NCBI GenBank assembly: GCA_025594325.1
Contig: JANHCV010000013.1
Coordinates: 434,001-498,000, forward strand
Direction: 5' to 3'
Length of the DNA stretch: 64,000 nucleotides
Source of the DNA: Blastocladiella emersonii ATCC 22665
Taxonomy: Eukaryota > Fungi > Blastocladiomycota
Shown piece after piece: positions 4,740 through 33,745 of the stretch (position 1 is its first letter; each line of letters opens with the position of its first letter). The notes beneath the pieces are model-generated. The model searched no databases. It was not told the DNA's origin and worked only from the letters and a program-made list of their open reading frames with translations. The translations under genes and the position numbers were made by a program.

Positions 4740-5786
<1,047 letters not shown>

Positions 5787-5794
5787 TCAACACC

Positions 5795-7051
5795 ATGGAC
5801 GAGAAGACCAAGCGCCTCGGCTTCGCCATCGTCGAGTTCCTGACGGCGTACGGCGGCGCCGACCACGTGTCGGACGAGGACCGCGAGTCGCTCGAGGTCG
5901 CCTCGCAGTGCCTGCAGGAGGTCTTCAAGGTCGACGCCGCCGACGCCGACCAGGCCAAGCTCTACTCGATCAAGCCGCACTCGCTCGCCACCGTCTTTGA
6001 CGTCTACCTCAAGACCGTCGCCGCCAAGAAGGCCCCCACTGCCGCTGCGCGCTCGGCCCCTGCCGCTGCTGCCGCGCCCGCCACCCCCGCCGTCGTCTCC
6101 GACGCCGACGCCAAGCGCGCCGAGGAGCTCAAGGCCGCGGGCAACAAGCTCGTCGCCGAGCGCAAGTACGCCGACGCCGTCGACAAGTACACGGCCGCCA
6201 TCGCCCTCAACCCCAACAACGCCATCTACTTCTCGAACCGGTACGGCATTCCCTCCCCCCTAAACCCTCCCCCACCTCCCGCTCACACACTCCCAACCCC
6301 CGCCACAGCGCCGCCGCCAACTCGGGCTACGGCAACCACGACGCCGCCGTCGACGACGCGCACGCCGCGCTGCGCATCGACCCCAACTTCAGCAAGGCCT
6401 ACTCGCGCCTCGGCCACGCCCTGTTCGCGCTCGCCCGCTTCCAGGACGCCCACGACGCCTACGCCAAGGGGCTCGAGCTCGACCCTACCAACGCCGCCAT
6501 GAAGCAGGCCCTCGCCCAGGTCAAGTCCAAGCTGCCCATCGTCACCGAGCCCGAGTCGCCCGCCGCTGACGCCGAGGAGGAGGAGAGCGAGGAGGACGAG
6601 GCCGCTGCGGTTGACAGCACGCCCCGCGGTGCGCCCGGTGCTGGCGCGGGTGCCGGCGGTATGCCCGACCTCGCGGGTCTCCTCAACAACCCCGGCCTCA
6701 TGTCCATGGCCCAGCAGATGATGGCCAACAACCCCGGCCTCGCCCAGATGGCTCAGCAGTTCATGGGCGGTGCTGGCGGCGCTGGTGCCGGTGCTGGTGG
6801 TGCGGGCGGTCTCGGCGATATGCTCAACAACCCCGCGCTCATGAACATGTACGTTATTCCCGCGACTCCCGCTCGGATTGAATACCGACTGACCTCCCCT
6901 CGTCGACCTGTGTAGGGCGCAGCAGGCCATGCAGGACCCCAACATGATGGCCAACCTCGCCTCCATGATGGGCGGCGCCGGTGGTGCCGGTGCCGGTGCC
7001 GGCGGCGCGCCGCGCGGCGGCCGTGGTGGCCGCGGTCGCGGGGGTCGCTAA
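5795..7051 (+). CDS. SGT2: Small glutamine-rich TPR co-chaperone (Sgt2/SGTA)
   Basis: N-terminal dimerisation motif ESLEVASQCL. TPRs AEELKAAGNK…YFSNR|AAA…KAYSRLG. Met/Gln-rich STI1-like tail. Introns 6241-6308 and 6849-6915; stop TAA 7049-7051. Confidence 0.93.
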
Positions 7052-7119
7052 GCCGGTCTCCCTTTCGGTTCCCCATTTTGCACGTCGTACATACTATAAA
7101 CTTGTGTATCAACCACCTC

Positions 7120-8220
7120 TCAAACGTGCTTGGCCGCGCGCGCCTCGGCGCGGAACACGCAGAAATAGAGCGGGCCCCACCCGTCGGCCGTGTCGGGCAG
7201 CACGATCCACCCGAGCTTGGTCGCCTCGCCCAGCGGCAGCTTGCGCCGCACCACGGAAATGTCGACGTGCATGTACCACGCGTCGTCTTCTTCATCGAAC
7301 TCGTCATAGGTATCGCCCTCGTCCTCGTCCTCCTCGTCGTCATCCGACAGATCCGCGGCCGCACGGCGCGCCGCGTGCTTGCGCGAGTACCGCTTACGCA
7401 TCTTAGCGATCCGCGCAAGCACCTTCTTCGCGACCTCGTCGTTCTCGGCGTCGGCGATCGAGCACGTCGCGTACACCAGCGTGCCGCCGGCCTGGAGCAC
7501 CGCGAGCCCGCTCCACAGCAGCTTCTGCTGGCGCACGCTCGCGTGGCGGTTGCGCGACGCCGACCATTTCGCGAGCTCGCCCGCGTCGTGCAGCACGTGG
7601 CGCTCGCTCGAGCACGGCGCGTCGATCAGGACCTTGGTGAACCGCCGGTGCCCGCGCGCAAACGCCGCCCCGTTCATCCCCGTCACCGTCAGCTGCCCGT
7701 GCAGGCGCTCGGGCAGGTGCGCGTGCAGCACGTCGACGAGCCGCGCGCGGCGGTCGACCGACGGTTCGTTGGCCGTCAGGGACCCGCGCGCCGCGAGTTT
7801 CGGGTCCGCGCCCGGCGCGCCGAGCAGGCGGAACAGGATGTTGAGCGACTTGCCGCCGGGCGCCGCGCACATGTCGAGCACGCTGTCCCCCGGCACCACG
7901 CGCAGCGCCTCGACCGCCGCCATGCTCGCCAGGTCCATGCAGTAGTACGCAAACTTGTTGAACACGTCGCGCTCGGGGCGCGCGAACGGGTACCCGCGGT
8001 CGCCGTCCGTCGCCGTCGTCGTGATCGCCGTCACCTGCAGCCACGGGACGCGGGACAGCGTGCCCGTCGCTTTGGCGAGGAGGGAGCGCACGACTGCGGG
8101 CTCGGCGAACGGGTTGATCAGCACCGCGTGCCGCGTCGGCGCCTTGAGCGCCGGGAGCAAGGTGGACCAACGGTCCGCGCCGTAGTGCTCGGAAAAGTGC
8201 GCGTTGAAGGCGCGTGACAT
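7120..8220 (-). CDS. NOL1/NOP2/Sun-family RNA m5C methyltransferase, NSUN3/NSUN4-like
   Basis: VLDMCAAPGGKS, VLIDAPCS, LVYATCS…ENDEV and GPLYFC motifs; ATG at 8220. Confidence 0.9.
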   Translation of the reverse strand: MSRAFNAHFSEHYGADRWSTLLPALKAPTRHAVLINPFAEPAVVRSLLAKATGTLSRVPWLQVTAITTTATDGDRGYPFARPERDVFNKFAYYCMDLASMAAVEALRVVPGDSVLDMCAAPGGKSLNILFRLLGAPGADPKLAARGSLTANEPSVDRRARLVDVLHAHLPERLHGQLTVTGMNGAAFARGHRRFTKVLIDAPCSSERHVLHDAGELAKWSASRNRHASVRQQKLLWSGLAVLQAGGTLVYATCSIADAENDEVAKKVLARIAKMRKRYSRKHAARRAAADLSDDDEEDEDEGDTYDEFDEEDDAWYMHVDISVVRRKLPLGEATKLGWIVLPDTADGWGPLYFCVFRAEARAAKHV

Positions 8221-8712
8221 TGCAAATGGGGTGTGGGGTGGGGGTAGGGGGAGAGAAGGTCGGCGCGCCGAAGTGTGGCGGAGTTGACGCTGGTCGCACG
8301 TCAGGTGACCGGTCGCCAGGTGGCTTTCGTGATCACGCGGTATAAGCGACGCGTCCCCCGCACAGCTGTCGCAGGAGAGTGACCTCAGGAAATGCGCGAC
8401 GCATTCGAGGCATAATGTTGGATGGTCAATGTAGCGCCCGGAGAGAAGTCGGGGACGCTTTTTTTTACGGAGTCGCACTGACGGTAAATCGACCATGTAG
8501 GAATGAGCGACGCGTACGGGCGCGGTGCTGACAGTAAATGCATTGAACACGGCGAAAGAGCGACGCGTTCGCAGTACAGTGCCGACAGTAAATTGATGGC
8601 AGGGGGAGTGAGCGACGCATGAGGAAACGGGAAACGCTGACAGTAACGACTCTTCTATAAACAAACAACCGCCGTGACGGGAAGGCCAGTTGTATTTTCA
8701 GCAGAACATCAA

Positions 8713-10092
8713 TCATTCGTAATCCCCATCGCGCAAACCATGACATTTGCCAGCACCACGACGCAAGTCACCCGAGAAGTGAGCACCAAGCATTGCGCAA
8801 AGCAGCTGCTTCGCAGCATTGGCTTCGCGCACGAGTTCCAGGGAGCTCTGCTTTGTCTCTTCCGCTTCCAGGATGAAGGTGGTGAGCCAAGAGAGCGCGT
8901 GGGCAACAGCGGGTGTCAAAAATGCAGCCGTGCTTGGTTCAGTTGGAAGAACTCGCAGGACAATTTTGAAGACATCGGAATGCTGAGCATGTAGAAGGGC
9001 AAACGCCTTTGGGTAGCCAGCAACAACGTGCAAGGGCGAATCCCCCGCGTCCGCGTCAGCTGTCGAATTCCTCCAGCCTTGCGAGTACAGGCAACCCATA
9101 ACACGAGCCAATTTCTCATGTGTCGGCAGACCCAGCTGTAACCGGGGAGAAGTGTTGTGGCGTGGTTGAAACAGCCACATGGAGGCCCAATCCGTCGAGA
9201 GGTCCATGACAAGGTTTGTGTGGTTTTCGCTGAACTGGGGGCGCGAGAGGAACTGGAGCGGCTCAAATTGCCAAGCAGCAATCGCAATGAAAGTGAGTAG
9301 AGTAGATCAGTAAATCGAGGTGCAAACCTGGGGTAAGGGGGGGGGGAAGATGAGGTAGGTAGAGTAGGAGCTGAGCTCGAGTTCGGCGAGAACGGGTTCG
9401 AGAACGCCGGCCTGGCCCGTAGTGACAGCGTGTACCGCGACCAGAAAGTAGACGACAAGTGGGTGCTGGTACAGCTGGCTCGGATGGGCCGATTTCGCGC
9501 TCTCGACAAGCGCGACAATGTCAAAAGGCGACATAGTGGCAGGCTCGTCCAAAGCTTGGTCAGGCGGCAAGCGAGCGGCCGTGCTCGCCGAGACGCAACG
9601 AATGAGAGAACGCATCAAGGTTTCGGCGCTGCGGTAGCAAGGGGTCAACGACGCATGCTCAAGATGACGATCGAACTGAACGGGTATTTCCCACCGCAAC
9701 CTGAGAGAAGCATTGAGAGTTGACAGGACACTGCCGATTTGATTGGCATCAAAGCCCCCCGGTAAGCTTTACAGTTGGTCGGTATCCAAGTCGGCATCTG
9801 AGACGCGGTCAGATTGACCTTTATCGTCGTCATTGACTTCGTCGTTTGCATCAACATTCTCGCCCTCGTTAGAGAAGCCGCCGAGTTGATTGGGAGCTGA
9901 ACTGGCGGCGAGGCGGGCGTTTTGCTTTGCTTGTTTGACAGAGGAGCAAGAGATTTCGCCGAGTATCCAGTTGGAGAGGACGAGGGTGTTTGAAGCTAGG
10001 AGAGAGGTCGCCCGCGAGGCAAGCGGGATCGCGACCTGGGGCGATGCTAGACGCCCAACGACGACGGCGACCGCGGGCGGCACGAAGCTCAT
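8713..10092 (-). pseudogene. Fragmented paralogue (copy A) of the gene at 12331-14821
   Basis: MSFVPPAVAVVVGRLASPQVAIPLASRAT matches MSFADLPAEVAVVIRQLARPRLAIPLASRAT; HALSWLTTF…LLCAMLGAHFS matches HAISWLTTF…LLCAMLAAHFS. Split over ORFs 9769..10341, 9307..9699, 8916..9524 and 8713..9207. Confidence 0.75.
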
Positions 10093-12330: not shown

Positions 12331-14821
12331 TCAAGACGAGGGCGGAGTGCGACGCTGGAATTTCGCGCACATATCGTGGCTCCGCTTTGCAAGAACGCAC
12401 TCACGGAGATTGACATACCCTGCCGTGAGACGGATCAGCTCGGTGATGTGCTCATGTTTCGCGTAACGGTCACCTTCGACGAGCTCGGCGACTTGCTTGA
12501 GAGTCATGGCACGAAGCAATGCGCCATCGCGGAGCGTCCGCGTGAGCAGCGGCGAAAATGGCCACATCTCAGAGAGAAGACCAGTAAGAAACTGGGGTGC
12601 CTTTGCCCCCATCGCGTCGACGATGAACGCGGAGGTACTGCCTGTCGCGCTTTTGGAGCAGCATGTGTTCGCCCCTTCATGATCCAGCGCCCGCTCGTGC
12701 TCGCGCTGAACGGGAGAAACGAAGGTTGAGAGGAACGGCAGCATGTTCGTGCCGCTATCAATCAAGTCGAGAAGGACGAGGAACGCGTCGCGCCAAGCTG
12801 GCTGATACGAGAGCGGACAGTTCGGACACACGGTCAGGCTGGAAGTAGCTGGGAAGACGAGATCCAAATGGGACGAGAAGTGGGCTGCGAGCATCGCACA
12901 GAGCAGCGACTCGGCACCGTTACGTTCGCGCACAAGTTCCAGCGAGTACGCCTTGGTCTCAGCGGCTCCCAGGGCAAAGGTCGTGAGCCAAGAAATCGCA
13001 TGTGCAGTCGCGGCAGACGAAAAAGCAGCCTTGTCTGGCTTAGAAGGAAGAATGCGCAAAACAATGCCGAAAACGTCAAGTCGATTAGCCTTGGGGTCGT
13101 CTGCGCCGAGAAGCAGAGCAATGGCTCCAAAGCGATCGAGTGTCTTGTTCTTGTCCTCGTCACCGCTGAAAAGCTCAAGGCCAAGGCGATCAATCAAATC
13201 GGACGAACCGGTCGTGCGCGCAAGATGGACGACCATGTCAGCAACATGAGGTTTGGCGTCAAGCTTCAGGCAAATGCGATCAAAGACTTGACGCAAAAAG
13301 GGGGCCGTTAGATGTTTTTCACAAAACGAGACGATGGTGGAAAAGAGTGAACGTACGACTGATGAGAAGCTTGTCCCAGTAGGAATCATAAGGGGCGACA
13401 GCCATGCGAATCTCCACCACCTGATTAGTTTGTTTGAGACTGAGAGCATCCTCAAGCGCGTGGACAAAGAATTCCGGTCCAACGAGTCCAAAGGGAAGCA
13501 GACAAACAACATCGTCAAACGGGTACCGCCGGTCAACGTAAAGTTTGGTCATGTAAGCTACAAAGTTGGCCCTGTGAAGAATGTTGAGATCCTTTTCAAC
13601 CTTTTCGCGGTGCTGAGCGCATAGGAGGGCAAGAGCCTTAGGATACTCGGCTACGACGTGTAGTGGCGCAACCTTGTCACACGCGTAAGACGTTGAGTTG
13701 TACCAGTCACGTGAAAACAACCAGCCTACGACACCGGCCAGGCCCTCAAACGTTGGCAGGCTCAGTGGCGTTCGGTGAGAGGAACTACGGCGATTTTTAA
13801 ACAGCCACAGGGACGGGTACTTCGCTGCGAGGTCGACAGCAAGTTTAGCGTGGTTTTCGCTGTACTGAGGGCGAGTGAGAACTTGAAGCGACTCAAATTG
13901 CCACGAAGCGATCGCAGTAAACGTGAGAAAATCGGGAAAGCGAGGATTAAAGCTGGCGAAGGCAAAGACGTAGTGGCATGTGCTGCTGGTAAGCTTGGGA
14001 ATATCAAGCATTTGGAACCACGGGTACCACTCGAGTGCAACTGCAAGCATTTGCGGACAAGTGCGCTCCAATTCGGACAAAATCGATTCAAGGAAGTGGG
14101 CATGGCCCGTGATGACCGCGTGCACAGCCAACAGAAAGTGTACGGCCAACGGATGCTGGAAGAGCTGGCTTGGGCGGGCCAATTTCGCACGACGGACAAT
14201 CGAGTAAAGGCGGTCCTTGTTGAACGTTTGGTTAAGCGGCAGGCGAGCGACAGCGCGCGCGGATAAGCAACGGGTGAGAGCACGCATCAAGGATTCAGCG
14301 CTGCTGCGGCGAGCGTCAAGCAATAAGTCCTCACCACGATGGTCAGACTGAGTCAGCACTTGCCACTGCGAGCGGAGAGAAGCGTTGAGTGTTGACCAGA
14401 CGCTGTCGATTTGCTTGGCGTCCGGGAAGCTTTTGGATTGGTCGGTAGCCGAGCTATCATCAGCAAGACCGTCCAAATCCTTGTCATCGTCATCATCGCT
14501 GTCGTTTTCGTCGTCGTCGCTTTCCTCTTCGTCGTTTTCCGCATTGTCATTTTCATCAGCGTTGGCGTCATCGTCGTCGGCGTCATTGTCAGAGAAGCCT
14601 TCGACTTGCTTGGGAGCTGGACTGGCAGAGAAGCGAGAGATTTGCGTTGGGGCTGGGTTGATTGCGAAGCGAGAGATTTCGCTGATCATCCAGCTGGAGA
14701 GCACAATGATGTCCGAAGCCACGACATAGGTCGCCCGCGAAGCAAGCGGGATTGCGAGCCGAGGCCGTGCGAGCTGCCTGATGACGACAGCGACTTCGGC
14801 CGGAAGGTCGGCGAAGCTCAT
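12331..14821 (-). CDS. Lineage-specific protein with F-box-like N-terminus (copy B), split over two overlapping ORFs
   Basis: ATG at 14821 (MSFADLPAEVAVVIRQL), acidic tract, ORF to 13319. Homology to copy A continues in ORF 12331..13536, implying an intron or frameshift near 13.4 kb. Confidence 0.6.
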
Positions 14822-15055
14822 GGTGCATAGACGCGGAGGTTGATGACTCGGTTGCATGGAGTGATTCATGAAGGTGGTGAGTTATGTTGCATGGGAGCGG
14901 GGGGAGAGGACGTTGATGCGAGGGGCTGGTGGGAAAGCAGGCGTTTTGCGGCGTGGCGCCACACGTGCCACGTTGCTATGGGTGGCATTGAACCCGCCAC
15001 ATGTTGTTGGCTTGCCCTCTCTCCACGCTCGCATGTACACCTCGATATGAAGCCC

Positions 15056-15070
15056 ATGAACCGGAAGCTG
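15056..15070 (+). pseudogene. 5' stub (MNRKL) of the host gene interrupted by the virus
   Basis: ATG AAC CGG AAG CTG joins in frame to CCG CAG CTG CCG ATT GAG (33746 onward) when the element and one AGCTG are removed. Confidence 0.8.
15066..15070 (+). other. Left target-site duplication AGCTG
   Basis: Identical AGCTG at 33741-33745; both abut the TIR ends. Confidence 0.92.
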
Positions 15071-15096
15071 TGCCGTATCCCTTAAGGGATACGGCA
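15071..15096. repeat. Perfect 26-bp terminal palindrome TGCCGTATCCCTTAAGGGATACGGCA
   Basis: Self-reverse-complementary. The arm GGGATACGGCA recurs at 15227-15237. Confidence 0.98.
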
Positions 15097-15542
15097 TGGG
15101 CTGACCCACCACCACCCAGGCTGACCAATTGCTTACCCCAAGCGGTTGGCGGCAGTCACTCGGGCTAACCACGTGATTGGCAATGCGTTACCCCGAGTAA
15201 TATATTGAGATTTGCCAAATGCCCCAGGGATACGGCACGGGGGCGGGTGGCGGGTGGGTCACGTGGATCACGTGCAGATGAATGGCGCATGGGCACGGCT
15301 GCGAGTCAATCTGTGAGACAAGTCCAAGAGCAGATCCCTGAGCCCGTCCCTGACCAACCGCTCGGGCTGACCATTGCTTACCCCGAGCGGTCGGCGGCAG
15401 CTGGCAAGCGCAGCGAGACGAAGAGCAGCGCAGCTGCGGCTACCCACTGACAGAGTTCCATGGTCTGGTCCCTGACCTGACCCCCAAGCCCATCCCCGAC
15501 CACCTGCCGCAAGCGGCTGCTATGAAGCCACTCACCGTAAAG

Positions 15543-15612
15543 GTTCCACTTTCATGGCATATTACGACAGAGTATATATATACACTACCCTTTTTTGCCA
15601 TGAAAGTGGAAC
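15543..15612. promoter_or_regulatory. 17-bp inverted repeat flanking a 36-bp AT-rich spacer (candidate replication origin)
   Basis: GTTCCACTTTCATGGCA (15543-15559) and TGCCATGAAAGTGGAAC (15596-15612), with a spacer containing AGTATATATATACAC. Mirrored at 33199-33268. The structure is observed; the function is inferred. Confidence 0.55.
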
Positions 15613-16237
15613 TTTCAAAGACAAGAGGTCAGGGTACAGGGGGGGGGGAAGGTTGAGGACAAGGGAGCGTCTTAGCAGCATCAATGTATTGGGCAGGACA
15701 GGGGTCAGGGCAAGGGAGCGTCTTAGCAGGCAGCGTCTTAGCAGGCAGGAAGGCAGCGTGGCAGGTCGTGGAGTGTCTTAGAGCTCGTTGTTGTCCAGCT
15801 CGAGGACAAAGGTCAGGGACTGCTACGGGGTGGTCGTCCAGCTTGCCCAGTGAGCCGCGTGGCTGGTGAACTGACCAACCGCGTGGCTGGGGAATTAGCG
15901 CTATCCCTTGCCCTATAAGAACCCCCCACTGCCCCCCTCCCCAGACCTGCTCTCCACCACCCACAACAGAAGCCATGACACAGATTCACTGCCTCAAGCC
16001 CCTGCTGAGCGCGTATAGGCCATCTTGCTGCAATGAGCCCAACGCACTCACAGGACTTTTGGTATGGGTGTCATGGCCAACGTTGTGGGTGGTCAAAGTG
16101 TACGGCACAAGACGTACAGGGCTATCTGCTGTGCACGGCAATAGACTCGGTTGCTTGTGTCAGGACATGGAGCGCTGCGTGGACTTGCTACCCGTGCAGT
16201 TGCACCATGGACCTTTCTTCCTTTATCCTGTTGGCGC

Positions 16238-16592
16238 TGTGTGGTCAATGAGCTTTGGTCTGTGCTGGTGTCCTGGTGTGGTCGATGCGCTTTGGTCTGT
16301 GTGGGTGTGCTGTGTGGTCGATGAGCTTTGGTCTGTGCTGGTGTCCTGGTGTGGTTGATGAGCTTTGGTCTGTGTTGGTGTCCTGGTGTCCTGGTGTCCT
16401 GGTGTCCTGGTGTCCTGGTGTGCTGGTGTACTGTGTGGTCAATGAGCTTTGGTCTGTGCTGGTGTACTGTGTGGTCGATGAGCTTTGGTCTGTGCCAGTG
16501 TACTGTGTGGTTGATGAGCTTTGGTCTGTGCCAGTGTACTGTGTGGTTGATGAGCTTTGGTCTGTGCTGGTGTACTGTGTGGTCGATGAGTA
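16238..16592. repeat. About 9 copies of a 36-bp tandem repeat with a nested 9-bp GTGTCCTG(G) sub-array
   Basis: Unit ~CTGTGTGGTCGATGAGCTTTGGTCTGTGCTGGTGTA; TCCTGGTG-type short repeats at about 16378-16420. Confidence 0.92.
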
Positions 16593-17264
16593 CTTGGCGA
16601 TGATGCCCTGCTCCACACTGGAACTTTGATTAGTGGTTGGCCACCATGAAAGGAGACTCCAGTGTGGGGCAGTCTGGGGGCTGCCTGGCCAGCAGCTCCT
16701 GGACGGGGGCGGAGCACCCATTGCTACGTTATGTCATTGCAGGGGCTGTGGTCACGTGACCAGTTGCCATGGACTGTTTGGTGGTGATGATGGAAGCGCG
16801 TTCAACGCACAAGTCTTTGACTTCTTCTCTGAACCTTCAGTAACCCATGCGCGGCTGCATCCTTGACATCACTCCCCTGCCTCAGCCGCCGTGCAACCAC
16901 TTGGAGCCACCTTGGTGGGTCTATGACAACTGGCTCCTGCTGGCCACGGTAGTTTACCCATGCTGTTGTCACACGTACACTGACTGCTATCATGGCTACA
17001 CCAGTGACAGCAACCAGTGAGAGTCTTCAAGGTAGCATTCACTGTTAACTTGAAGGGGCGCTTACTCAAAGCGCACAGCGTACACGACTTTGACACCGGG
17101 TGGACTTGCGTCTCAGATGGCCGTGTACTGGCTCAGGGACTTTGGCCCTGGTGTGGTTGGAGAAGGTGTACGGGGTGGTGACAAAGTGCAGCCAGTAGCC
17201 TGGTTCATGGTGTTGTCTCTTACTACGTTGTCGGGAAAATAAACACATTGCGCTGACGCGTTGC

Positions 17265-17405: not shown

Positions 17406-18152
17406 TCAGATGAACGCGAGCTCGATGTAGAAGGGTTGCCCCAGGAAGTCAACAGAGCGCAGGTTCTCGTCCACCACGTCAACGTCAATGGAGTCTATCA
17501 GCTGCAGTGTGCCTCGCGCGTCAAAGCGAAAGTAGTCGCTCATGTGTGGCCCGTGCTCGAACCAGCTCCCAAACGGCTGTGTGACATGGATACTGCACAG
17601 CACACCATTATCCTGCGGGTACGCCGAGAACATGTTGTCTGCAAGGCGGCTGCCCAGGTTGCACGAGTACACATGCAGCAGGTTGATGGGAGAGATGTTC
17701 ACCAGAGACGTCCCGTACTGGACCTTGCTGTAGCTGTAGCTGCTGACAAAGCCCATGTGCGTGTTCAGCGCAGCGGCCCCTGTCCCAACAGTGAAGTTGC
17801 AGGTGTCATTGGCAATGCGCATCTTCTGTGTGGTGGAGTCAACCTGCACGTCCCATGTGCCCTGCCACAGAAGACTTGACGGCGCGTTGTTGAGCAGGCT
17901 CTTGAGCGTTGACATGAACGTCTCAACTGTGTAGTTGCCGTCAGGGACAGTGATGGTCCCTGGGAAGGTCACACTGCCACGGCTCTGTGTCAGGTACACC
18001 TTGTTGGCCTTGGAGTTGACTGTGTGCCAGCTGTTACAGAGGTACGCTGAGTTGACCTTGACGCCGCTCACAGACACAGCCCGCGGGAGGTACAGCACAC
18101 CGTTCTTGAGGTCGCGGCTGCAGATGGTCAGTGTCTTGTAGGAGCCAGTCAT
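17406..18152 (-). CDS. Minor capsid protein (penton, single jelly-roll), PLV type
   Basis: TLTICSRD…, NSWHTVN…ITVPDGNYT…LKSLLN, INLLHVYS and IDVDVVDENLRSVDFLGQPFYIEL follow the PLV/Polinton penton pattern; close to the MCP gene. Confidence 0.85.
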   Translation of the reverse strand: MTGSYKTLTICSRDLKNGVLYLPRAVSVSGVKVNSAYLCNSWHTVNSKANKVYLTQSRGSVTFPGTITVPDGNYTVETFMSTLKSLLNNAPSSLLWQGTWDVQVDSTTQKMRIANDTCNFTVGTGAAALNTHMGFVSSYSYSKVQYGTSLVNISPINLLHVYSCNLGSRLADNMFSAYPQDNGVLCSIHVTQPFGSWFEHGPHMSDYFRFDARGTLQLIDSIDVDVVDENLRSVDFLGQPFYIELAFI

Positions 18153-18479: not shown

Positions 18480-19700
18480 TTACTTGTAGAGGTTGACCTC
18501 GCCGGTTGGGAGAAACTCGTACACAATGTCAACACCAACAAAGGCGTCAACACGCTGGTTTGGGACAGTGCTTGAGGTGAGGATGATCTGCATGTCCACG
18601 GCCTGGCTCTTGCAAGACTTGTCGCCGCTGACAATGGTACGGGATGACTCGAGGTTGCGGCCAATGCAGAAGGTCCCCTCAGCTGGCGCATTGTACTTGT
18701 CCACTGACATGCCTGCACCAATGACATGGCCATGGAAGGCGTTGGACAGCTCTACAAAGGCCTCTGAAGCGTAGTTGTCACAGCGGACAGGCTTCTGGGG
18801 GAAGAGACAGCCACTTATGCTGAACTGGTACGTTGCAATGGTCTTGGCACGGAGGAACGAGTCCTTGGCATTGTCATTGAGCACTGCGTTGTCGCGGAAC
18901 GACACCAGCACGTCCTTTTGTGACGCACTGCGGTCAGAGACGTTGAGCGTAGAGTTGGGCACCGAGTAGTTGAGGAAGTGGTGGTTGTACGTTGTGCCGT
19001 AGAGCTTGAGACCCTGCTTCTTGAAGGCAGCGTCCATGACGGCGATCTGCTGGTCATTGAGCTTGATCAGGTCAGACACAATGCACACGTCCTTGACACT
19101 GTAGCTTGGGATGGCATTGTTCTTGACCACACAGGCATCTGCACCAGGAGCCAGGGTGAACTCGACGCAGATACCACCAAGGTACTTCATGGGCAGATGC
19201 TTCTGGTTGGACAGCAGTGCAGACTTGATGGGCAGCATGTACCGGTGAAGTCCAGATGACACAGCAAAGCGGTCAGCCCCAGTGGCAAAGTAACCCTGGG
19301 CCACGCCGAGGCATGAGTCCTTGAGGTGCTGCGGGACAGTCACGTCAGCCTCAATGCGCTGACGCAGGTTGTAGTAGGGAAGCTCTTCAAGCAGGGCTCC
19401 ACCCGCGCTGTAGACTCGCACACGGTCAATGATGCTGAAGATGCTATCACAGAAGGCGACGTTGGCGTCTGCAGTCTTGGCACTGAACTGCAGGAACGTG
19501 CAGTGGGTGTCCATCATGTCATTGCGCGGGGGCAGGAGGACACTGATAGTGTTGCCAGGTGCAAACTCAGGGCCGCCCTGTGCAGTGAACTGGACAGTCT
19601 GACGCTCGGCATACACAGACTCCTTGGGCAGGTTAAACGTCATCTCTGGCGGCAGAGTCTTTGACAGGACCTGGGAGAACTGGGCATTGGTGGAAGACAT
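18480..19700 (-). CDS. Major capsid protein (double jelly-roll), PLV type, about 406 aa
   Basis: EFAPGNTISVLLP…MDTHCTFLQF…SIIDRVRVYSAGGALLEELPYYN and C-terminal FCIGRNLE…SG…VDAFVGVDIVY. Likely start MSSTNAQF at 19700. Confidence 0.88.
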   Translation of the reverse strand: MSSTNAQFSQVLSKTLPPEMTFNLPKESVYAERQTVQFTAQGGPEFAPGNTISVLLPPRNDMMDTHCTFLQFSAKTADANVAFCDSIFSIIDRVRVYSAGGALLEELPYYNLRQRIEADVTVPQHLKDSCLGVAQGYFATGADRFAVSSGLHRYMLPIKSALLSNQKHLPMKYLGGICVEFTLAPGADACVVKNNAIPSYSVKDVCIVSDLIKLNDQQIAVMDAAFKKQGLKLYGTTYNHHFLNYSVPNSTLNVSDRSASQKDVLVSFRDNAVLNDNAKDSFLRAKTIATYQFSISGCLFPQKPVRCDNYASEAFVELSNAFHGHVIGAGMSVDKYNAPAEGTFCIGRNLESSRTIVSGDKSCKSQAVDMQIILTSSTVPNQRVDAFVGVDIVYEFLPTGEVNLYK

Positions 19701-19743: not shown

Positions 19744-20544
19744 TTAGTCCTTGATGATCCACTCACTGAAGCTGTCTACCAGCCTGTACTTGGGACTGTT
19801 CTGGTTGTTGACACCAAGGAAGCGTTGCTTGGTGTTGCCCTCTGAGCGGGTGTCAAAGAGCTGCTCAATGATCACCTCAAACTCCTTGAGCGAGAACTGC
19901 GACCCGATCTCCTTGTGCAGTGTCTTGACCTCTGTCTTGTCATAGATGGGGTACACAACGCTGTAGCTGCAGTTGATGCGCAGTGTCTTGGGCAGAGCAC
20001 ACCAGCGCTGCACGCCAATGATGCAGCTGATCTTGAGGTGTCGCGAGTTGCACAGGAAGTTGGTCAGCGTCTTGTGGGACAGCAGCTTGAGGCCCAGCAC
20101 GTCGTCAATGATCAGCAGCTGGTCCTGCAGTGCCTTCTTTCCCTGGTCTTCAAAGGTCTTGGTCAGGTCTTTGCGCATCTTGAGCAGCGTGGGGATGAAC
20201 AGCTCTGGGTCCGTGACAATGCACAATGGCTTCACCTTGAGCTGGTTTGGGTTGTGCTCCTGTGGATCAAGTACATTGTGCTGCTTCTTGGGTGGTCGCA
20301 GGATCGCCTGTGAGGCAATGTACTCGTACTTGTCATCAGCGTGGAAGGTGGGGTTGAAGACCCAGATGTTGTCAAAGCGTCCCTTGTAGAACTGCGGGAA
20401 GCACACAAGGTTGGCAATCAGTGTTGACTTGCCCTGACCCTTGGCGCCAATGACGTTCATGGTGAAGGGGTGCTTGGGGATGGGCGAAGGCTGGTTGTTG
20501 TTGTTCCTGGTGAAGCCGTTGTCAATGGCCACAATGTTGTACAT
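19744..20544 (-). CDS. A32/FtsK-HerA-family DNA packaging ATPase
   Basis: Walker A VIGAKGQGKST, Walker B LLIIDD, RHLKIS…VQ…LPKTLRIN. Likely start MYNIVAID at 20544. Confidence 0.93.
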   Translation of the reverse strand: MYNIVAIDNGFTRNNNNQPSPIPKHPFTMNVIGAKGQGKSTLIANLVCFPQFYKGRFDNIWVFNPTFHADDKYEYIASQAILRPPKKQHNVLDPQEHNPNQLKVKPLCIVTDPELFIPTLLKMRKDLTKTFEDQGKKALQDQLLIIDDVLGLKLLSHKTLTNFLCNSRHLKISCIIGVQRWCALPKTLRINCSYSVVYPIYDKTEVKTLHKEIGSQFSLKEFEVIIEQLFDTRSEGNTKQRFLGVNNQNSPKYRLVDSFSEWIIKD

Positions 20545-22326: not shown

Positions 22327-22469
22327 GGTACACTTTGCACCTGTCTGTGGTACACTTTGCACCGTCAAGGGTACACTTTGCACCTGTCTGTGGTACACTT
22401 TGTACCGTCAAGGGTACACTTTGCACCTGTCTGTGGTACACTTTGTACCGTCAAGGGTACACTTTGTAC
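22327..22469. repeat. 7 copies of GGTACACTTTGYAC with alternating 22/21-bp spacing (43-bp higher-order unit)
   Basis: Copies at 22327, 22349, 22370, 22392, 22413, 22435 and 22456; linkers alternate CTGTCTGT and CGTCAAG. Confidence 0.93.
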
Positions 22470-22680
22470 GTTGTGCATTGCGCTTGGCGTTGAGTGCCTT
22501 GTAGATGCGGATCTTGACGCGCTCTGCCCGTGCTGCCTCACTGTCAACGTGGACAAAGCGACTGGCCTTGCAGTCCCTCTTCTGTAGCCACTTGGCCTTG
22601 TCCTTGTCGCTCTTGTTGTACCAGTTGGATGGCACAGGGAACGTCCCTGCAAGGTGTTCACGCCACTCATCAAGGGACAT
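22408..22680 (-). CDS. Small basic viral hypothetical protein (about 90 aa)
   Basis: MSLDEWREHL…KAKWLQKR…RIYKALNAKR; the C-terminus runs into the repeat array; start codon uncertain. Confidence 0.45.
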   Translation of the reverse strand: MSLDEWREHLAGTFPVPSNWYNKSDKDKAKWLQKRDCKASRFVHVDSEAARAERVKIRIYKALNAKRNAQRTKCTLDGTKCTTDRCKVYP

Positions 22681-22723
22681 GTCCTGGTACTCTGAGCAAT
22701 TCATTTCTTGCACTAAGTTAAAC

Positions 22724-24580
22724 ATGGTCAAGAATATATTCAACGTGTCTACCAACGTGTCACCAACAGTGTCGGCCACAGGTGTCTCAGACGTGTCCAA
22801 GGCATATGTTGATGCTGCCATCAGTGCTGTCTATGCCACAGTTGGTGCACCTGTCGCTGGGCCTGGACTCAGCGTGTCAGGGACAACTGTCTCTGCCAAG
22901 GTCAATGACCAGACACTGGGTGTTGGTCCAAGCGGTCTCTATGTCAAGTCAATCAGTACGGCCCAGCTCCTGCCAGCCAGCGTCACAGCAGACAAGCTTG
23001 TGAGTGTCACAGCTGCACAGGTCACAGGTAAGCTTGTTGATGCACAGCTGGACACTGTGTCAGCATCCAAGGTCACTGGTGTGCTCAGTGCGTCCAGCCT
23101 TCCTGTGCTTGGGACAGCGTCCATTGCAGATGGCTCTGTGACAGACGCCAAGGTTGCCTCAGTGTCTGGGTCCAAGCTGGTTCCAGGAAGTGTCTCAACA
23201 CCTGCTCTTGCAGACGCCTCAGTGACAGACGCCAAGGTTGCGTCTGTGTCCGGGTCCAAGCTGGTTCCAGGGACTGTCAGCACAGCAGCACTTGCAGACA
23301 CCGCAATAACAGATGTCAAGGTTGCCTCAGTGTCTGGGTCCAAGCTGGTTCCAGGGACTGTCAGCACAGCTGCCCTTGCAGACGCTGCTGTCACCAACGC
23401 CAAGCTGGCCACTGGTATAGACGGTGCAAAGCTCAACGTGTCATCTGTGGGAACAGCACACCTTGCAGCAGGGTCAGTCACCAATGCCAAGGTCACAGAT
23501 GTGTCTGCCACCAGGCTGACAGGGACGCTTGATCCTGCACGCATTGCAGACAGTTCACTGACCAATGCCAAGCTGGCCACTGGGATAGACGCTGCCAAGT
23601 TGTCTGGGACCATTGACCTTGCACGACTGCCTGACGTGTCCAGCAAGGTGTCAAGTGTCAACGGAGCCATTGTCACTGGGACGCTCCCCCAGTCCACCCT
23701 TGGACTTGGCAGTGTCTTTACCTTTGCCAGTACTGTGGACAGCACATCAACGTCCACTGGGGCAGTCACTGTGGCAGGTGGCCTTGGTGTGGGCAAGCAG
23801 CTCACTGTGCCAAACGTCCTTGTCCGGAACACAGTCAGTGCAAATGTGGTCTTTGACTCTGCTGCCAACACACTCACATACATTGACTTCAAGCAAGCAG
23901 GTGTCCTGAAGAGCAACCTGGCATGCACTGCACTGGGCACCATTGAGATTGCTTCAGCAACCAATGGTGGTGTGTCCTTGGCTGCAGGTGGCGGCAACGT
24001 GGTTGTGGGCTCGGCGACGCTTGGCACAGAAAAGCTCCGTGTCAATGGCACTGGTCGCTTCACAGGGCAGCTCACCCTTGACCTCGCTCCAGTGGCAGGC
24101 ACTGACGCAGCAAACAAGGCGTACGTTGACTCGCGGTCTGGCATGACCCGGTACGTCGCTCAGGCTGAGCACCGCTCTACAAACGGAGTGACCACAGGTG
24201 GCAAGATCATTGGCAGCACAGCATCGACGGGCCCGGCCACCTTTGCGTTCCAGTCCACGGCAGGCGCGTTCACGTCTGTGATCAATGGATGTGTCAAACC
24301 CCCTGTCAGTGGCTACTACCTCGTCCATGCAAAGGGCTATTACGCAAACGGCACGCTCCCTGGAGCCCACACTGTGAACTTTGCGCTGTACAATATGACG
24401 GACATGATTGCAGTGTCACTTGTCACCGGGTGCCGCGCTGAAGGCAACGTCCAGTTCCTTCAGTTCTTGAGCATTGAGTACCTTGACGCGGCCAAGAGCT
24501 ACTCTTTCATCTGGATCCCGTCGGTCGCAGTTGCCAACAACTGCCAGGTCATCATTCAAAGCCACTGGACCCTGCTCTAA
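22724..24580 (+). CDS. Fibre/spike-like virion protein (about 618 aa) with phage-tail-fibre-type repeats and a putative C1q/TNF-like head
   Basis: 28-aa repeats ADASVTDAKVASVSGSKLVPG.VST.AL (84-bp DNA period), VTNAKLATGID.AKL, DAANKAYVD and C-terminal PVSGYYLV. Start MVKNIFNV at 22724. Confidence 0.75.
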   Translation: MVKNIFNVSTNVSPTVSATGVSDVSKAYVDAAISAVYATVGAPVAGPGLSVSGTTVSAKVNDQTLGVGPSGLYVKSISTAQLLPASVTADKLVSVTAAQVTGKLVDAQLDTVSASKVTGVLSASSLPVLGTASIADGSVTDAKVASVSGSKLVPGSVSTPALADASVTDAKVASVSGSKLVPGTVSTAALADTAITDVKVASVSGSKLVPGTVSTAALADAAVTNAKLATGIDGAKLNVSSVGTAHLAAGSVTNAKVTDVSATRLTGTLDPARIADSSLTNAKLATGIDAAKLSGTIDLARLPDVSSKVSSVNGAIVTGTLPQSTLGLGSVFTFASTVDSTSTSTGAVTVAGGLGVGKQLTVPNVLVRNTVSANVVFDSAANTLTYIDFKQAGVLKSNLACTALGTIEIASATNGGVSLAAGGGNVVVGSATLGTEKLRVNGTGRFTGQLTLDLAPVAGTDAANKAYVDSRSGMTRYVAQAEHRSTNGVTTGGKIIGSTASTGPATFAFQSTAGAFTSVINGCVKPPVSGYYLVHAKGYYANGTLPGAHTVNFALYNMTDMIAVSLVTGCRAEGNVQFLQFLSIEYLDAAKSYSFIWIPSVAVANNCQVIIQSHWTLL

Positions 24581-25689
24581 AGCCCGCGGTCCCACTTTTC
24601 TTGGACTCGGACTGGGACGCGCCTGACCTGGGTCGAGGGCTCCCTTGGCATGACCGGGGTGCGCGCAGCAGGGAGCCTTGGGAGACTTGGACCTACGCGC
24701 TGCCTTGTTGGCGGGTCCTGGGTCGCTGTGACTGGCTGGACGTCGCTGCGTGGATAGAAGCCCTTCAAGTCACCAACCTTGTACAATGGGTTGCTCACAC
24801 TAGAGCCCTTGCGGACAGCTGTGACTTGGTGCACTGTGGACGTCCATACTGGCTTTCCCTTTGCTTCCATGGCTGTCTTGTACGGCTCACGGACACGTAC
24901 CTGTGTTCCAACTTTGAGCAGCGCACTGAGTGGGTCACCCTCTGGCTTGCCCTTGGCAGCACGGATGGCCTTGAGTGTGTCCTTGGCAGCGTCTTGCGGC
25001 ATGTCATGGAAGTCATTGGGCGCCTTGCCTGTAGCTCTGGACTTGCTGCTGTTGATCACGGACTCTATGGTCTCAAGGTGCTTTGGCCAGTTGTTGTTGC
25101 CTTCAATGGACAGCCACGGTGTCAGCATCCTGCAAATGGTCCCGTTCATACGCTCAACTACTCCCTGACTGTATGGCACACCTGCCTTGCCTTTGATGTG
25201 CTTTGCGCCTGTCCCCGCTTCAATGCCATTGAACTCTGTGCCATTGTCTGTCTGGATGGTTGCTGGTGTCAGGTTGTGCTTGGAGACAACGTCGTCCCAT
25301 GCCTGCCGTGTCAGGTCCTTGGTCTTGACTGGACGCAGGAACACGCGTCGAGTTGCCAAGTCTACACAGGTAAGAATGTACCTGAACCCGTTGAAGGTAC
25401 CTTTCTTGCCCATGTCTATGAGGTCCAGCTGCCAGTTGCAGCCAGGACTGGTGGACACAATGCTTTGGATGTTGCGCCGCTTCTGTGGTGCACACTTGTA
25501 CTGCTGCCACACAGACTGCTCATTGAGCCACCTCTCCAGCTGTGCGCGGTACACGTGGTCACCAGTGTTCTCTCTGGACACAATGTCAAAGAGCCAACAG
25601 ATACCAACACCAACATTGCCGCGCTTGTAGTACAAGTCTGTCAGGAACGCTTGCTGTGCGTCTGTGAGTGGTGCTTTGTGTGGATACAT
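24577..25689 (-). CDS. Retroviral-like (rve, DDE) integrase of Polinton type
   Basis: WQLDLIDM…LTCVDLATR, IQTDNGTEF and PYSQGVVERMN give a D-D-E triad. Polinton-type C-terminus VGTQVRV…KGKPVWT…YKV.D.KGFYPRSDVQPV. Its stop overlaps the fibre stop (CTAA). Confidence 0.93.
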   Translation of the reverse strand: MYPHKAPLTDAQQAFLTDLYYKRGNVGVGICWLFDIVSRENTGDHVYRAQLERWLNEQSVWQQYKCAPQKRRNIQSIVSTSPGCNWQLDLIDMGKKGTFNGFRYILTCVDLATRRVFLRPVKTKDLTRQAWDDVVSKHNLTPATIQTDNGTEFNGIEAGTGAKHIKGKAGVPYSQGVVERMNGTICRMLTPWLSIEGNNNWPKHLETIESVINSSKSRATGKAPNDFHDMPQDAAKDTLKAIRAAKGKPEGDPLSALLKVGTQVRVREPYKTAMEAKGKPVWTSTVHQVTAVRKGSSVSNPLYKVGDLKGFYPRSDVQPVTATQDPPTRQRVGPSLPRLPAARTPVMPREPSTQVRRVPVRVQEKWDRGL

Positions 25690-25712: not shown

Positions 25713-26654
25713 TCAGACAAGGTAGTGGGCCACGGCGACAGGTACGCTGTGACCCATCTCAGCAGCACGCTTGGCCACGGCCTCATACGCGTCCTTGTTC
25801 TCACTGGTGCTGATGCGGCGGATCTGCTGGACACCGCACCCCTTGAAGCCAACGTCCTGTGCTGCCAGCGCAATGGTCTTGGACCAGTCTTTGCGGACCT
25901 TGGCGTTGACCTGAGCATCACAGACGTTGTCCAGGCTGTGGTTGTAGAAGACCAGGTCATGGCCATCAGCAAGACGCTTGGCAATGATGCGCTCAAGGGC
26001 TGCAGCAACCTTGGGGTCAGCAATGACATGCGAGAACCCGTAGCCACGGCCATCTGTCTTGACGCACACAGGGCCGGCCAGCGTCTTGGTCTCGGGGTTG
26101 TAGCTTGGGTACTTGTCACTGGGCTTGGTGGTCAGGAACGCAAGGTCACTGCGGGTTGCACAGACGACTTGGAGGTACAGACGCAGAGCACGCATTGTGC
26201 CAGACACCTGGTATGTGTCCCAGTTCTCAGCAGCAACAACAGCAGCCAGCAAGTCTTCACGGCTTGGGAGTGCACCAGTCTCCACAGCCTTGCGCGCGTC
26301 AAGGTGAGCTTCAGCGTCCTGCTTCTTGGCCTGCGTGTACTGTGCAGCAAGGTTGTTGTTGCCATTCCACTTGCAGTACTTGGCCAGCGCCTTGAGCGTC
26401 TCAACCTGCAGACCCTGTGCCTTGTCTGTGCCCTTGGTTGCACGGTACGTCTCCACAGCCTTTGTCATACTGTTGACGTCCTCAATGGCCAGCCCCGACT
26501 TGCAGAACGCAGTCAGCACGCAACACAGCTTGGACTGGTCATCGGCACTGAGCTGGGACACTTGGCCGTACTTGTTCACCACAGGCTCACTGGCACACGC
26601 CTTGATGGATTCCTCGGTCATCTGCGCGTACTTGACCTGGGGATCAGTGTCCAT
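25713..26654 (-). CDS. Tyrosine recombinase-like protein (about 313 aa)
   Basis: Putative catalytic set: R (ATRSDL), K (CVKTDG), QQIRR at the HxxR position, and terminal MGHS…AHY. The ORF stays open upstream to a GTG at 26714. Confidence 0.72.
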   Translation of the reverse strand: MDTDPQVKYAQMTEESIKACASEPVVNKYGQVSQLSADDQSKLCCVLTAFCKSGLAIEDVNSMTKAVETYRATKGTDKAQGLQVETLKALAKYCKWNGNNNLAAQYTQAKKQDAEAHLDARKAVETGALPSREDLLAAVVAAENWDTYQVSGTMRALRLYLQVVCATRSDLAFLTTKPSDKYPSYNPETKTLAGPVCVKTDGRGYGFSHVIADPKVAAALERIIAKRLADGHDLVFYNHSLDNVCDAQVNAKVRKDWSKTIALAAQDVGFKGCGVQQIRRISTSENKDAYEAVAKRAAEMGHSVPVAVAHYLV

Positions 26655-26984
26655 GGGCTCGCCAGACTCGTTGGCGGGGGTGTCATCGGAACTGTGATTG
26701 CAGTCACGTGACACTGCAGCCAGCGCGGCGAGGCTGGTCTCGATTTGCCGTCACACAGCCTTTGGCTGGCACCGGCGCAGGGCTTTGCCCTCTCGCCCTT
26801 GCCCAGACTTGCGCCGCGCACGCTCTCGCACTCCCTGACCAAATCGTGCAACTCGCCCGCCTCCCAGCATGCATGCGGACGCTTGCCGACCCTGCGCTCC
26901 GGGCACGGTGATGTTCAGGTTGCGCATGATGGCGAGGTCGATGAAAAATTTTTTTTTAAGGCGGCCAGCGTCGCTTCGTCGAGT

Positions 26985-27850
26985 TGATTATCAGCGCCGC
27001 TTTGTTGGGTTGAAGTTCAACGTCGCCTTGTTGTGTTGATGACCAGCGTCGATTGATGACCAGCGTCGACTTGTCGGGTCAATGATCAGCGCCGCCTTGT
27101 TGGGTTGACAATGAGCATCGCCTTGTTGCGTTGATGTCCAGCGTTGCCTTGTTCAGTTGGAGTTCAGCGTCGTCTTGTTGCGTTGAAGTTCAGCGTCGCC
27201 TTGTTGCATCAAAGCTCAGCGTCACCTCGTTGCGTTGACGACCAGCGTTGTTGCATTGACAACCAGCGTCACCTCGTTGCATTGTGATCAGCGTCGCCTT
27301 GTTGGGTCGTGATCAACGTCGCCTTGTTGCATTAATGATCAGCGTCAGCTCGTTGTGTCAATGACTAGCGTCGCCTTGTTGCGTTGATGGCGAGCGTCGC
27401 CTTGTTGCGTCAATGACCAGCGTCGCCTTGTTGCGTTGATGACCAGCGTCGCCTTGTTGCGTCAATGACCAGCGTCACCTTGTTGCGTCGATGACCAGCG
27501 TCACCTCGTTGTGTCAATGACAAGCGCTGCTTTGGTGAGTTGTTGGTCAGCGTCGCCTCGTTGAGTTCAAGTCCAACGCGTCTTTGTTGAGTTCGTGATC
27601 AGCAGCGCCTCGTTGCGTCAATGACCAGCGTCGCCTCATTGCGTTGCGTTGATGATCAGCGTTGCCTTATTGGGTTGACAATCAGCGCTGCGTTGTGTCT
27701 ACGACCAGCGTCACCTTGTTGAGTTTGTAATCAGCGTCGCCTTGTTGAGTTCGTAATCAGCGTCGCCTTGTTGCGTTCATGATCAGCGTTGCCTCGTTGC
27801 TTTCATGATCAGCGTTGCCTCGTTGCATTGATTGCCAGCGTCGCCTCGTT
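26985..27850. repeat. About 33 degenerate copies of a 26-bp tandem repeat, consensus CAGCGTCGCCTTGTTGCGTTGATGAC
   Basis: Period 26 is clear at 27421/27447/27473; no ORF of 60 aa or more lies in 26988-28053. Confidence 0.92.
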
Positions 27851-28476
27851 CCATTGCTGAGCGACGCCGCGCCACGCAACACTGATTGAAGAAGAGATGA
27901 TGATCGAGTGCTGCGCTTGAGAGTCGACAAACAAACGAGTTGAGTTAGCTCAGACTACGCTGAATTCGTCATAGCAAAACTATTGCGTTCCTGTCAAGAT
28001 TCTGCCCCAACATATGGTTGCTCATCTCTATTGCGACACGATCAAGGCAAGGATCAGGGGCTGCGACTCAACTCAGCCGCGCTGCTGCTGCTGTTGCCGC
28101 ATAACATGCTGCGCAGAGCGACAGTGACAAGGTAACACGTAAGGTGAACCGCCAACTTGGCGCGGATGCGGCTAAAGTCGCACAGCAACCAAGAAACGTC
28201 ATTGACACATGAAGAAGCAACAACAGAGTACATATTTGTTGCGGGTTGACTTTGATTCAGCGAGGGCGCGCGAGGGAGAAAGGGCGAGGGGACGCGTTCA
28301 GCCACTCACGTGACATGATGAGGCAAGCCCAAATGTGACAATCAACGCCAGACCCGGTGGCGGAGCAGGTGGTGGAGGCACGGTTGCAGATGCGGTAGGC
28401 GGAGGTGCAGGACCAGAAGGCGAAAGCGACCTGGGTGCGACTGTTGAGGACAAGGTGTTTGAAGTAAGTGCAGCGC

Positions 28477-29772: not shown

Positions 29773-29920
29773 CAGGACGGGACAAGGACACAATGCACAG
29801 GACGGGACAAGGACACAATGCACAGGACGGGACAAGGACACAATGCACAGGACGGGACAAGGACACGATGCACAGGGCAGGCCAACCAGGACGGGACAAC
29901 GACACAGTGCACAGGACAGG
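29773..29920. repeat. 25-bp tandem repeat (CAGGACGGGACAAGGACACAATGCA), 4 copies plus a degenerate copy
   Basis: Copies at 29773, 29798, 29823 and 29848. Confidence 0.92.
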
Positions 29921-30021
29921 CCATGCCAACAAGGGCTCCCGGGGCACAGTCATTAACGCTAAATCCTGCGCGTTTAAACGCACCTGTCCTGTCACCCTTT
30001 CTGTTACCTCATCATAACAAC

Positions 30022-33000: not shown

Positions 33001-33033
33001 GAGGACAACAACGAGGACAACAACGAGCTCTAA
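30022..33033 (+). CDS. AEP primase(-polymerase) fused to a herpes UL9/origin-binding-protein-like SF2 helicase (about 1003 aa)
   Basis: AEP motifs YFDID, SWHIV and DSSVYSKHRFMKCINQSK. Helicase motifs TGMGSNKM, VVWITPRITL, VVVDKSE, FMDAF, LYHGD, ITVGVNF and FQAIYRVR. Likely start MVCNQ at 30022; the last codons lie inside the right TIR. Confidence 0.85.
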   Translation: MVCNQVPSKHGTAFGLKWFHGKDGGDSDMGPQRTLLSELQDNETVIKRLVDKGVDNHSQPKAAHYFAKVKTADLAGLLDKNCCIQEMVHPNRLSKVYFDIDCPGNRKDVTLDVIKKVILTQVPSANLQVCSYETDLKKSWHIVLSNYTATLKDMPFLKLFCSHPDHVKLGFDSSVYSKHRFMKCINQSKPKKTPSVWISGNKDRLSKHLIQCDFDPNCASVLDLSFEEVVTAKAKEARTKRHVGRLDYDLDIPEFKDVQIDPDFLYYDATPLEILHNIPISPENAFHNNVTWRIMTWAMRKGVTFDQFWAWTSQQDNSAQRMQKYWGRWNEIASNDNYQVLDTFVKAIFYKWFPAAFKSKAMAKFEQSLEVPVDVTSPNQFLSCNNITLAKFNVLATGMGSNKMGAVCDYIAKYPDAQVVWITPRITLAHNTEGRACEQKLGFVNYCSIKDKKTLGDHKRLIVSPCSLHYLTKPYNIVVVDKSETVLKMFQDAKLHTTTIRNNLEANLKAFKTLCEHKGSNGIFMDAFVTNLTMDVLRSFTVEHNIKTILHGKIKVITNTLGKNFEPHKMSLITDDKDNEKSAEDIMESNIIADLKANKKLYLFLPRPCKTSTKWSVQTFGEYLERVFAKETWKIGKQIKLYHGDRPNHEDKELIDPDSVWGDNTVRIVIANLKITVGVNFLKPYVFHKVYARYKSWVPARDFFQAIYRVRYPIDNEIVFMISHGCRGAYMNKLQVIDLDSVGKLHRAIVKNTDLENEMAAVTFCLKVFDAFRKVINIVMDNSPKYYYKAHPEIKDVMTLGWSFEWANVQLPSKEIMRAYCKGTIKDPDWTISLSVRKAFFIRKFNGLSMDNMKIIWDDNAESFMERIQHFYTKDKGHVLQKLLEHNDMDLRTSKEFNIQATIPAKFEADIHKYFKKLGYYKCDTATVLNRLLSTYFNKCLAVPDKDEPRVSVRGKKYSNLKWTDNILYFVMYETWTPPPANLAPFVLEMDEDEDNNEDNNEL

Positions 33034-33740: not shown

Positions 33741-33745
33741 AGCTG
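33741..33745 (+). other. Right target-site duplication AGCTG
   Basis: Matches 15066-15070. Confidence 0.92.

Follow-up and report, generated by a model that had tools for sequence, protein, structure and literature searches.

The window analysed here, a stretch of 64,000 nt from Blastocladiella emersonii ATCC 22665, harbours a provirus of 18,670 bp, which is framed by a 5-bp target site duplication (TSD) with the sequence AGCTG (15066-15070 and 33741-33745, forward strand). Directly inside the TSD, as the outermost bases of the provirus, lie two perfect 26-bp palindromes (15071-15096, with the TG/CA end in its outer arm, and 33715-33740). They are the tips of terminal inverted repeats (TIRs) of 726 bp each (15071-15796 on the forward and 33015-33740 on the reverse strand), which differ from each other at 3 positions. 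A third copy of an 11-bp palindrome arm is present inside the TIR (15227-15237, forward strand; mirror at 33574-33584), in a stretch that is thinly covered by sister copies and is perhaps specific to one subtype. The TIR also contains an inverted repeat of 76 bp, imperfect and AT-rich at its centre (15540-15615; mirror at 33196-33271). Spaced inverted repeats likewise occur in the non-coding ends of the relatives L048, L063, L080 and L082.

The provirus disrupts a host reading frame at its 5' end (15048-15070 and 33741-34150), the remainder of which follows the right TSD copy. Deletion of the element together with one AGCTG copy restores this frame, and an in-frame stop is found further on. 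The frame is without a Pfam match; we take it to be F-box/ankyrin-like. In the host DNA to the left of the provirus there is a 152-nt direct repeat with 75% likeness between its copies (9929-10080 and 14652-14803), and a paralogue from elsewhere in the genome also aligns at 14666-14823.

The reverse strand of the element encodes a likely double-jelly-roll major capsid protein of 406 aa (18480-19700) and a 248-aa protein (17406-18152), for which Pfam was uninformative and which is a likely minor capsid protein by position and size. No Pfam match was obtained for the 406-aa protein; its look-alikes in the Atlas (0.97-0.98) carry DJR/Capsid families on 10-24% of their members, with a recognition score below the threshold. 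Seven of the eight named clusters of its relatives are from B. emersonii (81-96% identical), and one relative is from outside Blastocladiella. Also on the reverse strand are the genes for an A32-like packaging ATPase (19744-20544; Pox_A32, E 9e-13), for a retroviral-type (rve) DDE integrase (24577-25689; E 2e-7, slightly below the curated threshold) with intact catalytic residues D89, D148 and E179, and for a tyrosine recombinase (YR) of 313 aa (25713-26654). The forward strand encodes a fibre-like repeat protein (22505-24580; Phage_Tail_Tip, E 1e-6) and a predicted primase/PriCT-2 protein with a herpes UL9-like SF2 helicase (29818-33033). The latter had no Pfam match, and its look-alikes at 0.99 carry Herpes_ori_bp on 70% and 39% of their members and PriCT_2 on 52%. 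The 76-bp inverted repeat in the TIR may be an origin-like site for this UL9-type helicase. Tandem arrays are located between the viral genes at 26965-27895, 16200-16613, 22327-22469 and 29773-29936, with units of 26, 36, 21-22 and 25 nt, respectively.

The A32/FtsK ATPase, a size within 15-40 kb, the TIRs, the TSD and the integrase place the element among the Polinton-like viruses (PLVs). Protein-primed PolB (pPolB), a feature of Polintons/Mavericks, was not found: its motif is absent from all six frames of the element and Pfam PolB from the 10 ORFs scanned, in agreement with the earlier view, reached from the letters alone, that this is a virus without pPolB. The palindrome in the TIR beside the TSD and the RVE integrase with a non-pPolB replication gene are features that it shares with the elements described for Halocafeteria. 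All six named relatives of the YR, besides itself, are B. emersonii proteins; together with the capsid clusters they point to this aquatic fungus as the likely host, with many sister copies of the element. The same genome has another family of YRs (P0008, P0011-P0013), 35-36% identical to the YR of the window, and judging from these proteins the host may contain several PLV types.

The palindromes had been noticed in the sequence-only reading, and the follow-up confirms them. The 26-mer has exactly two copies in the window, and in 100 shuffles it was never matched, even with 3 mismatches tolerated. Twelve perfect palindromes of at least 14 bp exist in the window, among which the terminal pair alone exceeds 14 bp; about 0.002 palindromes with arms of at least 13 bp are expected in 64 kb. 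Both junctions are crossed by contigs of the sequencing runs X1 and X3 with zero differences, although this agreement is not independent if these runs are the window's own source. At both ends the flank contigs pass the palindrome by 2-3 nt into the TIR, up to 15098 at the left and from 33712 at the right.

Sister copies of the element were visible as loose ends. The right end gave 17 such rows, 13 of which continue into different host DNA, representing six or more distinct flanks. In line with the expectation that sister copies should keep the terminal palindrome, all 13 rows retain the outer arm with CA at positions 33739-33740 in the identical register, as GGCA, GACA or AACA; this set is biased, since armless ends may have been missed owing to their shortness. 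The commonest sister class has a depth of about 2000, as compared to about 145 per single copy (X3). This class differs from the copy in the window by one further letter, which may be a compensating change at 33717. One AACA copy seems to be altered in the outer arm alone. In a single contig of the shallowest run, the axis is one base longer; the other three runs do not contain this variant, and we consider it a likely error.

These data bear on the possibility that the palindromes are an assembly artefact or the result of accidental fold-back repair during insertion. Accidental annealing after strand breaks is raised in a recent preprint on related elements (10.64898/2026.07.28.741278). Such an origin is very improbable in our case, given that contigs of two runs contain both junctions without differences and that a fixed register and a terminal motif are common to the sister ends and to the relatives described below.

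Searches with the integrase resulted in 132 loci, of which 73 were used for the screen of neighbouring genes (L002, a duplicate, and others with weak partial matches were left out) and 97 for the screen of TG...CA palindromes. Near-palindromes of this type were present in 6 of the 97 loci. In four loci, which have three distinct ends (L063, L082 and L090=L091), the palindrome starts with TGTCG and finishes with CGACA. The palindrome is 60 bp long and perfect in L063, 60 bp long with one mismatch in L082, and 102 bp long in L090=L091. In each case it follows non-coding DNA downstream of the integrase and divides AT-rich, viral-like DNA from host-like DNA. These metagenomic proviruses have one end each on their contig and are thus known without TSD; moreover, they form one related family and may stem from one campaign. 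The pattern of the window's own palindrome had no match in the metagenome contigs or in the viral contigs.

Several other candidates were rejected. The repeats in L088, L093 and L118 are tandem arrays. L134 contains a 38-bp near-perfect palindrome (9633-9670) just upstream of the integrase, which is internal, with viral-like DNA on both sides, and possibly represents an origin or a junction. The sole match of a scan with the L063/L082 ends, in L135, is unpaired and lies inside an ORF of a contig without integrase or YR; it is attributed to chance. As a point against the hairpin model given below, twenty-two of the 24 tested GC change-points are without such a palindrome; the nine of these palindrome-free points that were inspected by eye resembled truncated elements, insertions or genes rich in GC and not intact ends. 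In L123, a GC-rich insert of approximately 3 kb (about 5480-8400) interrupts an AT-rich element with neighbouring YR and integrase genes.

L063 and L082, which are 75% alike over the integrase, were compared along their arms. Twenty-three arm pairs are unchanged, six are altered on both sides and still paired, and one is altered on one side only, so that six of the seven changed pairs are compensatory. The 60 nt interior to these palindromes are 28% alike in an ungapped comparison. Such co-variation would follow from a stage of the cycle in which the arms pair with each other as the strands of a single stem. At the base pair immediately interior to the palindrome, CA is not conserved, which identifies the outer CA as the attachment site. 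The central 4 nt, which would stay free in a simple fold-back, are self-complementary in the window (TTAA), in L063 and in L082 (TATA and GCGC), though all three differ; a symmetric centre in two of three relatives has a P of about 0.011. In L090/L091, the apex is asymmetric over 10 nt.

The palindrome could instead be just a symmetric protein-binding site, composed of two boxes for the integrase or the helicase at an ordinary open end which never forms a hairpin. The 11-bp arm repeated within the TIR at 15227-15237 is what one would expect of such a box. However, binding sites conserve their sequence, while here the middle and the centre change and still pair, and the palindrome length ranges from 26 to 102 bp. 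We therefore regard a mere binding site as unlikely.

Altogether, we think it probable that the palindromes are the unfolded remains of the covalently closed hairpin ends of a free genome, which were opened off-centre, at a fixed CA, by the rve integrase. The earlier mechanism, built around the YR, had omitted this integrase (24577-25689), and it is the enzyme which most likely made the proviral junction, considering its intact DDE triad, the TG...CA ends and the 5-bp TSD. According to our model, the free genome would be linear with hairpin tips, and replication through the tips would yield head-to-head junctions. The integrase would then nick after the CA, 13 nt past the axis, and could use for this either the hairpin or the junction formed by replication. 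The latter is favoured as the substrate, since the footprint of an integrase would hardly fit on a stem of 13 bp. Joining of the CA end to the host DNA would involve a stagger of 5 bp, and host repair would fill in both the TSD and the arm, so that either end becomes a palindrome that is duplex over its full length. Retention of the whole palindrome would mean that a resolvable junction is regenerated: cutting at the axis and resealing could free the provirus with hairpin ends. For this axis-cutting step the adjacent YR is a candidate; alternatively, a junction nuclease of the host or of a helper virus, or nicking and refolding, could accomplish it. Neither hairpin ends nor a free genome were observed, and strand-switch (fold-back) joints were not seen in the contigs of four runs from one sample, contigs being likely to drop them.

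The proposal of hairpin telomeres formed by the tyrosine recombinase thus fares differently in its two parts: the hairpin ends gain from the recurrence of terminal palindromes in related proviruses and from the co-varying arms, while the YR is a candidate for their maker. That the protein encoded at 25713-26654 is a tyrosine recombinase was correctly recognized from the letters and follows from its fold and its residues. R168, K199, R279, H302 and Y311 are conserved over 13 homologues, the exceptions being the gaps of a fragment and one substitution of R279; the first catalytic histidine is replaced by glutamine (Q276). The predicted structure has the layout of a core-binding and a catalytic domain. 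In a model with pLDDT 64, from which all the Z-scores given here were obtained and none from a second model with pLDDT 78, XerA and topoisomerase IB reached Z 9.2 and the telomere resolvase TelK Z 5.3; in the structural alignments of this low-confidence model, the rmsd was 4.4 over 143 aligned residues for TelK and 11.9 over 197 for XerA. The best predicted-structure matches of the pLDDT-78 model are giant-virus YRs (E 1e-4 to 6e-6; six matches at E 0.001 or below), and this model had no match at E 0.001 or better among solved structures. The comparison with protelomerases and with Cre-like recombinases that the first reading had called for gave a divided answer: against solved structures Foldseek placed TelA at rank 1-2 (E 0.003-0.011, TM 0.27-0.33), on a level with Cre (TM 0.44-0.48) and lambda integrase (TM 0.43), whose TM-scores are both higher.

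At the sequence level, none of the 13 homologues matches the telomere-resolvase Pfam family at E up to 5, and just two match Phage_integrase; a sequence search of the PDB with the YR gave no match to the telomere-resolvase family. Telomere resolvases are described as requiring symmetry between the scissile phosphates, whereas sites of the Cre type are asymmetric (PMC12270096). Symmetry across the centre exists in the window, L063 and L082, and not in L090. According to the same source (PMC12270096), a few mutations interconvert resolvase and recombinase activities, for which reason structure alone cannot decide between them. As judged from the models, a role of the YR as protelomerase is thus neither shown nor excluded. 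It is the leading candidate for the enzyme making the hairpins, which we consider possible rather than probable, and the asymmetric apex of L090/L091, unlike a resolvase product, counts against the YR step.

If the YR acted like Cre, it could recombine the two palindromes to yield a circle with a TIR-TIR junction and leave a solo palindrome behind, as had been suggested before. The junction, previously estimated at about 1.4 kb, is an inverted repeat of 1426 bp by our calculation. The integrase would then nick both far CAs of this junction, rebuilding two terminal palindromes, so that the same provirus ends are predicted. The domain layout and the higher TM-scores to Cre than to TelA (0.33 at best) would agree with such a reaction, and circular excision products are typical of YRs (10.64898/2026.10.13.758929). 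On the other hand, copying of a duplex junction gives the arms no reason to co-vary, and symmetric sites are without directionality. Further, no solo-palindrome allele branches off at the locus in the X1/X3 contigs, which drop rare variants, so the circle and its footprint are unsupported at this locus in the contigs of one sample. Taken together, this makes circular excision quite improbable.

A stronger competitor retains the hairpins and dispenses with the YR. They could arise by fold-back priming or by cruciform resolution through a nuclease of the host or of a helper giant virus, while the YR would have no role at the ends and would insert the element into the genome of a giant virus, as is usually assumed for virophages that have two integrases. 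This overlaps with our preferred explanation in everything apart from the enzyme, and the chance that the YR has no role at the ends is considerable, if somewhat short of even. It corresponds to model D of the Halocafeteria preprint, which also describes a palindrome-ended PLV without YR (10.64898/2026.07.28.741278), and a role in giant-virus integration is given to the YR in the paper on the Cafeteria virophages termed EMALEs (PMC8547959). The giant-virus YRs as the best predicted-structure matches and the asymmetric apex of L090 are in agreement with it. Together with the YR-less Halocafeteria PLV, this apex indicates that such ends can likely be maintained without a YR. Against it stand the symmetric centres in three of the four distinct ends and the 12 of 44 loci in which the YR is next to the integrase.

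This linkage was determined among the 44 loci with a strong integrase match. A YR is on the contig in 18 of them, within 300 bp of the integrase in 12; the 26 without YR are mostly short contigs, and where 1 kb is available on both sides, three of six loci have a YR. Before profile iteration, YR matches were obtained in 7 loci only. Among the palindrome-ended relatives, the YR adjoins the integrase in L063, and in L080, which over 1.8 kb shares 98.5% identity with L082, a YR gene occurs together with a fragment of a UL9-like helicase; no YR was seen in L091, over its 3 kb. The virophage-like L001/L002 (L001 10004-16177) combines rve integrase, YR, primase with UL9-like helicase and a TIR, and shows no recognisable terminus; with the L001 YR alone, the match to the YR-family profile was not significant. 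In viral contigs, no relatives of the YR, the capsid protein or the helicase were found.

The element touches on several open questions: by what means PLVs and virophages without pPolB replicate their ends and exit the host chromosome, and why many of them retain a YR beside an rve integrase. With a 26-bp site, two small enzymes, many sister copies and a culturable fungus, it makes each of them testable. It is tempting to speculate that the YR is a telomere resolvase of a eukaryotic virus, forming hairpins from dimer junctions and excising the provirus at its regenerated terminal palindromes, and that genome insertion, by off-centre opening of these ends, is the task of the DDE integrase; this would explain the two "integrases" in pPolB-less PLVs and virophages, but at present it is more doubtful than probable. 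If true, hairpin telomeres of the bacterial type and integration of the retroviral type would be united in one eukaryotic virus.

Parts of this picture have counterparts in known systems. Conversion of a hairpin into a terminal palindrome by a nick off the tip is familiar from the P-nucleotides of V(D)J recombination and from parvovirus terminal resolution; in contrast to these, a conserved CA would set the length here, and what results would be linked to host DNA. In phage N15, TelN is the telomere resolvase of a hairpin-telomere replicon, and we know of no hairpin-telomere replicon that integrates by means of a DDE integrase. The replicons with TelA, ResT and TelK resemble the element in having a YR-family enzyme beside a perfectly symmetric site (PMC12270096), and hairpin ends would solve end replication via dimer junctions; they differ in that the YR of the window is without their Pfam match and has a fold tied with Cre and lambda integrase. 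Polintons/Mavericks are similar in size (about 20 kb), TIRs, rve integrase, ATPase and capsid, while the element of the window lacks the pPolB motif and has palindromic ends.

For eukaryotic viruses, it was speculated that a YR resolves dimers at the hairpin ends of entomopoxviruses (PMC11296320), and YRs are associated with AEP and PolA replicases, a link called elusive (10.64898/2026.10.13.758929). Giant viruses of zoosporic fungi have been described, in a paper whose main text does not mention Blastocladiella (PMC13533422). Our literature search, which covered few subscription papers, found nothing on a PLV protelomerase or on these Blastocladiella elements. The mid-GC EMALEs of Cafeteria share the rve integrase with YR, the TIRs and short TSDs, and some EMALE types are also without pPolB and have a longer primase/helicase; they differ by virophage capsids and by the assignment of the YR to giant-virus integration, and "hairpin" does not occur in the main text of that paper (PMC8547959).

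The closest parallel is the Halocafeteria seosinensis preprint of July 2026, which describes palindromes beside TSDs in endogenous virophages of the subtypes 1, 2, 5 and 6 as well as in subtype 4 of the PLVs, associates them with replication not based on pPolB and with certain RVEs, and puts forward a model of hairpin priming after excision (10.64898/2026.07.28.741278). Those elements and ours are alike in the TIR palindrome at the TSD, the RVE integrase, the non-pPolB replication and the hairpin model. The example palindrome in Halocafeteria has 52 nt as compared to 26 here, and ours is a PLV with both RVE and YR in a fungal host; no Halocafeteria PLV with both is reported in the preprint's text, and subtype 4 is still palindrome-ended (10.64898/2026.07.28.741278). 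Thus, the palindromic end as such is already described, while co-variation of the arms, the conserved end for attachment, the link to the YR and a resolvase role for this enzyme appear to be absent from the text of the preprint; the end motif or the YR association may be contained in its figures or supplements. What the Blastocladiella element adds is the host group, the combination of genes, and comparative support for a hairpin stage.
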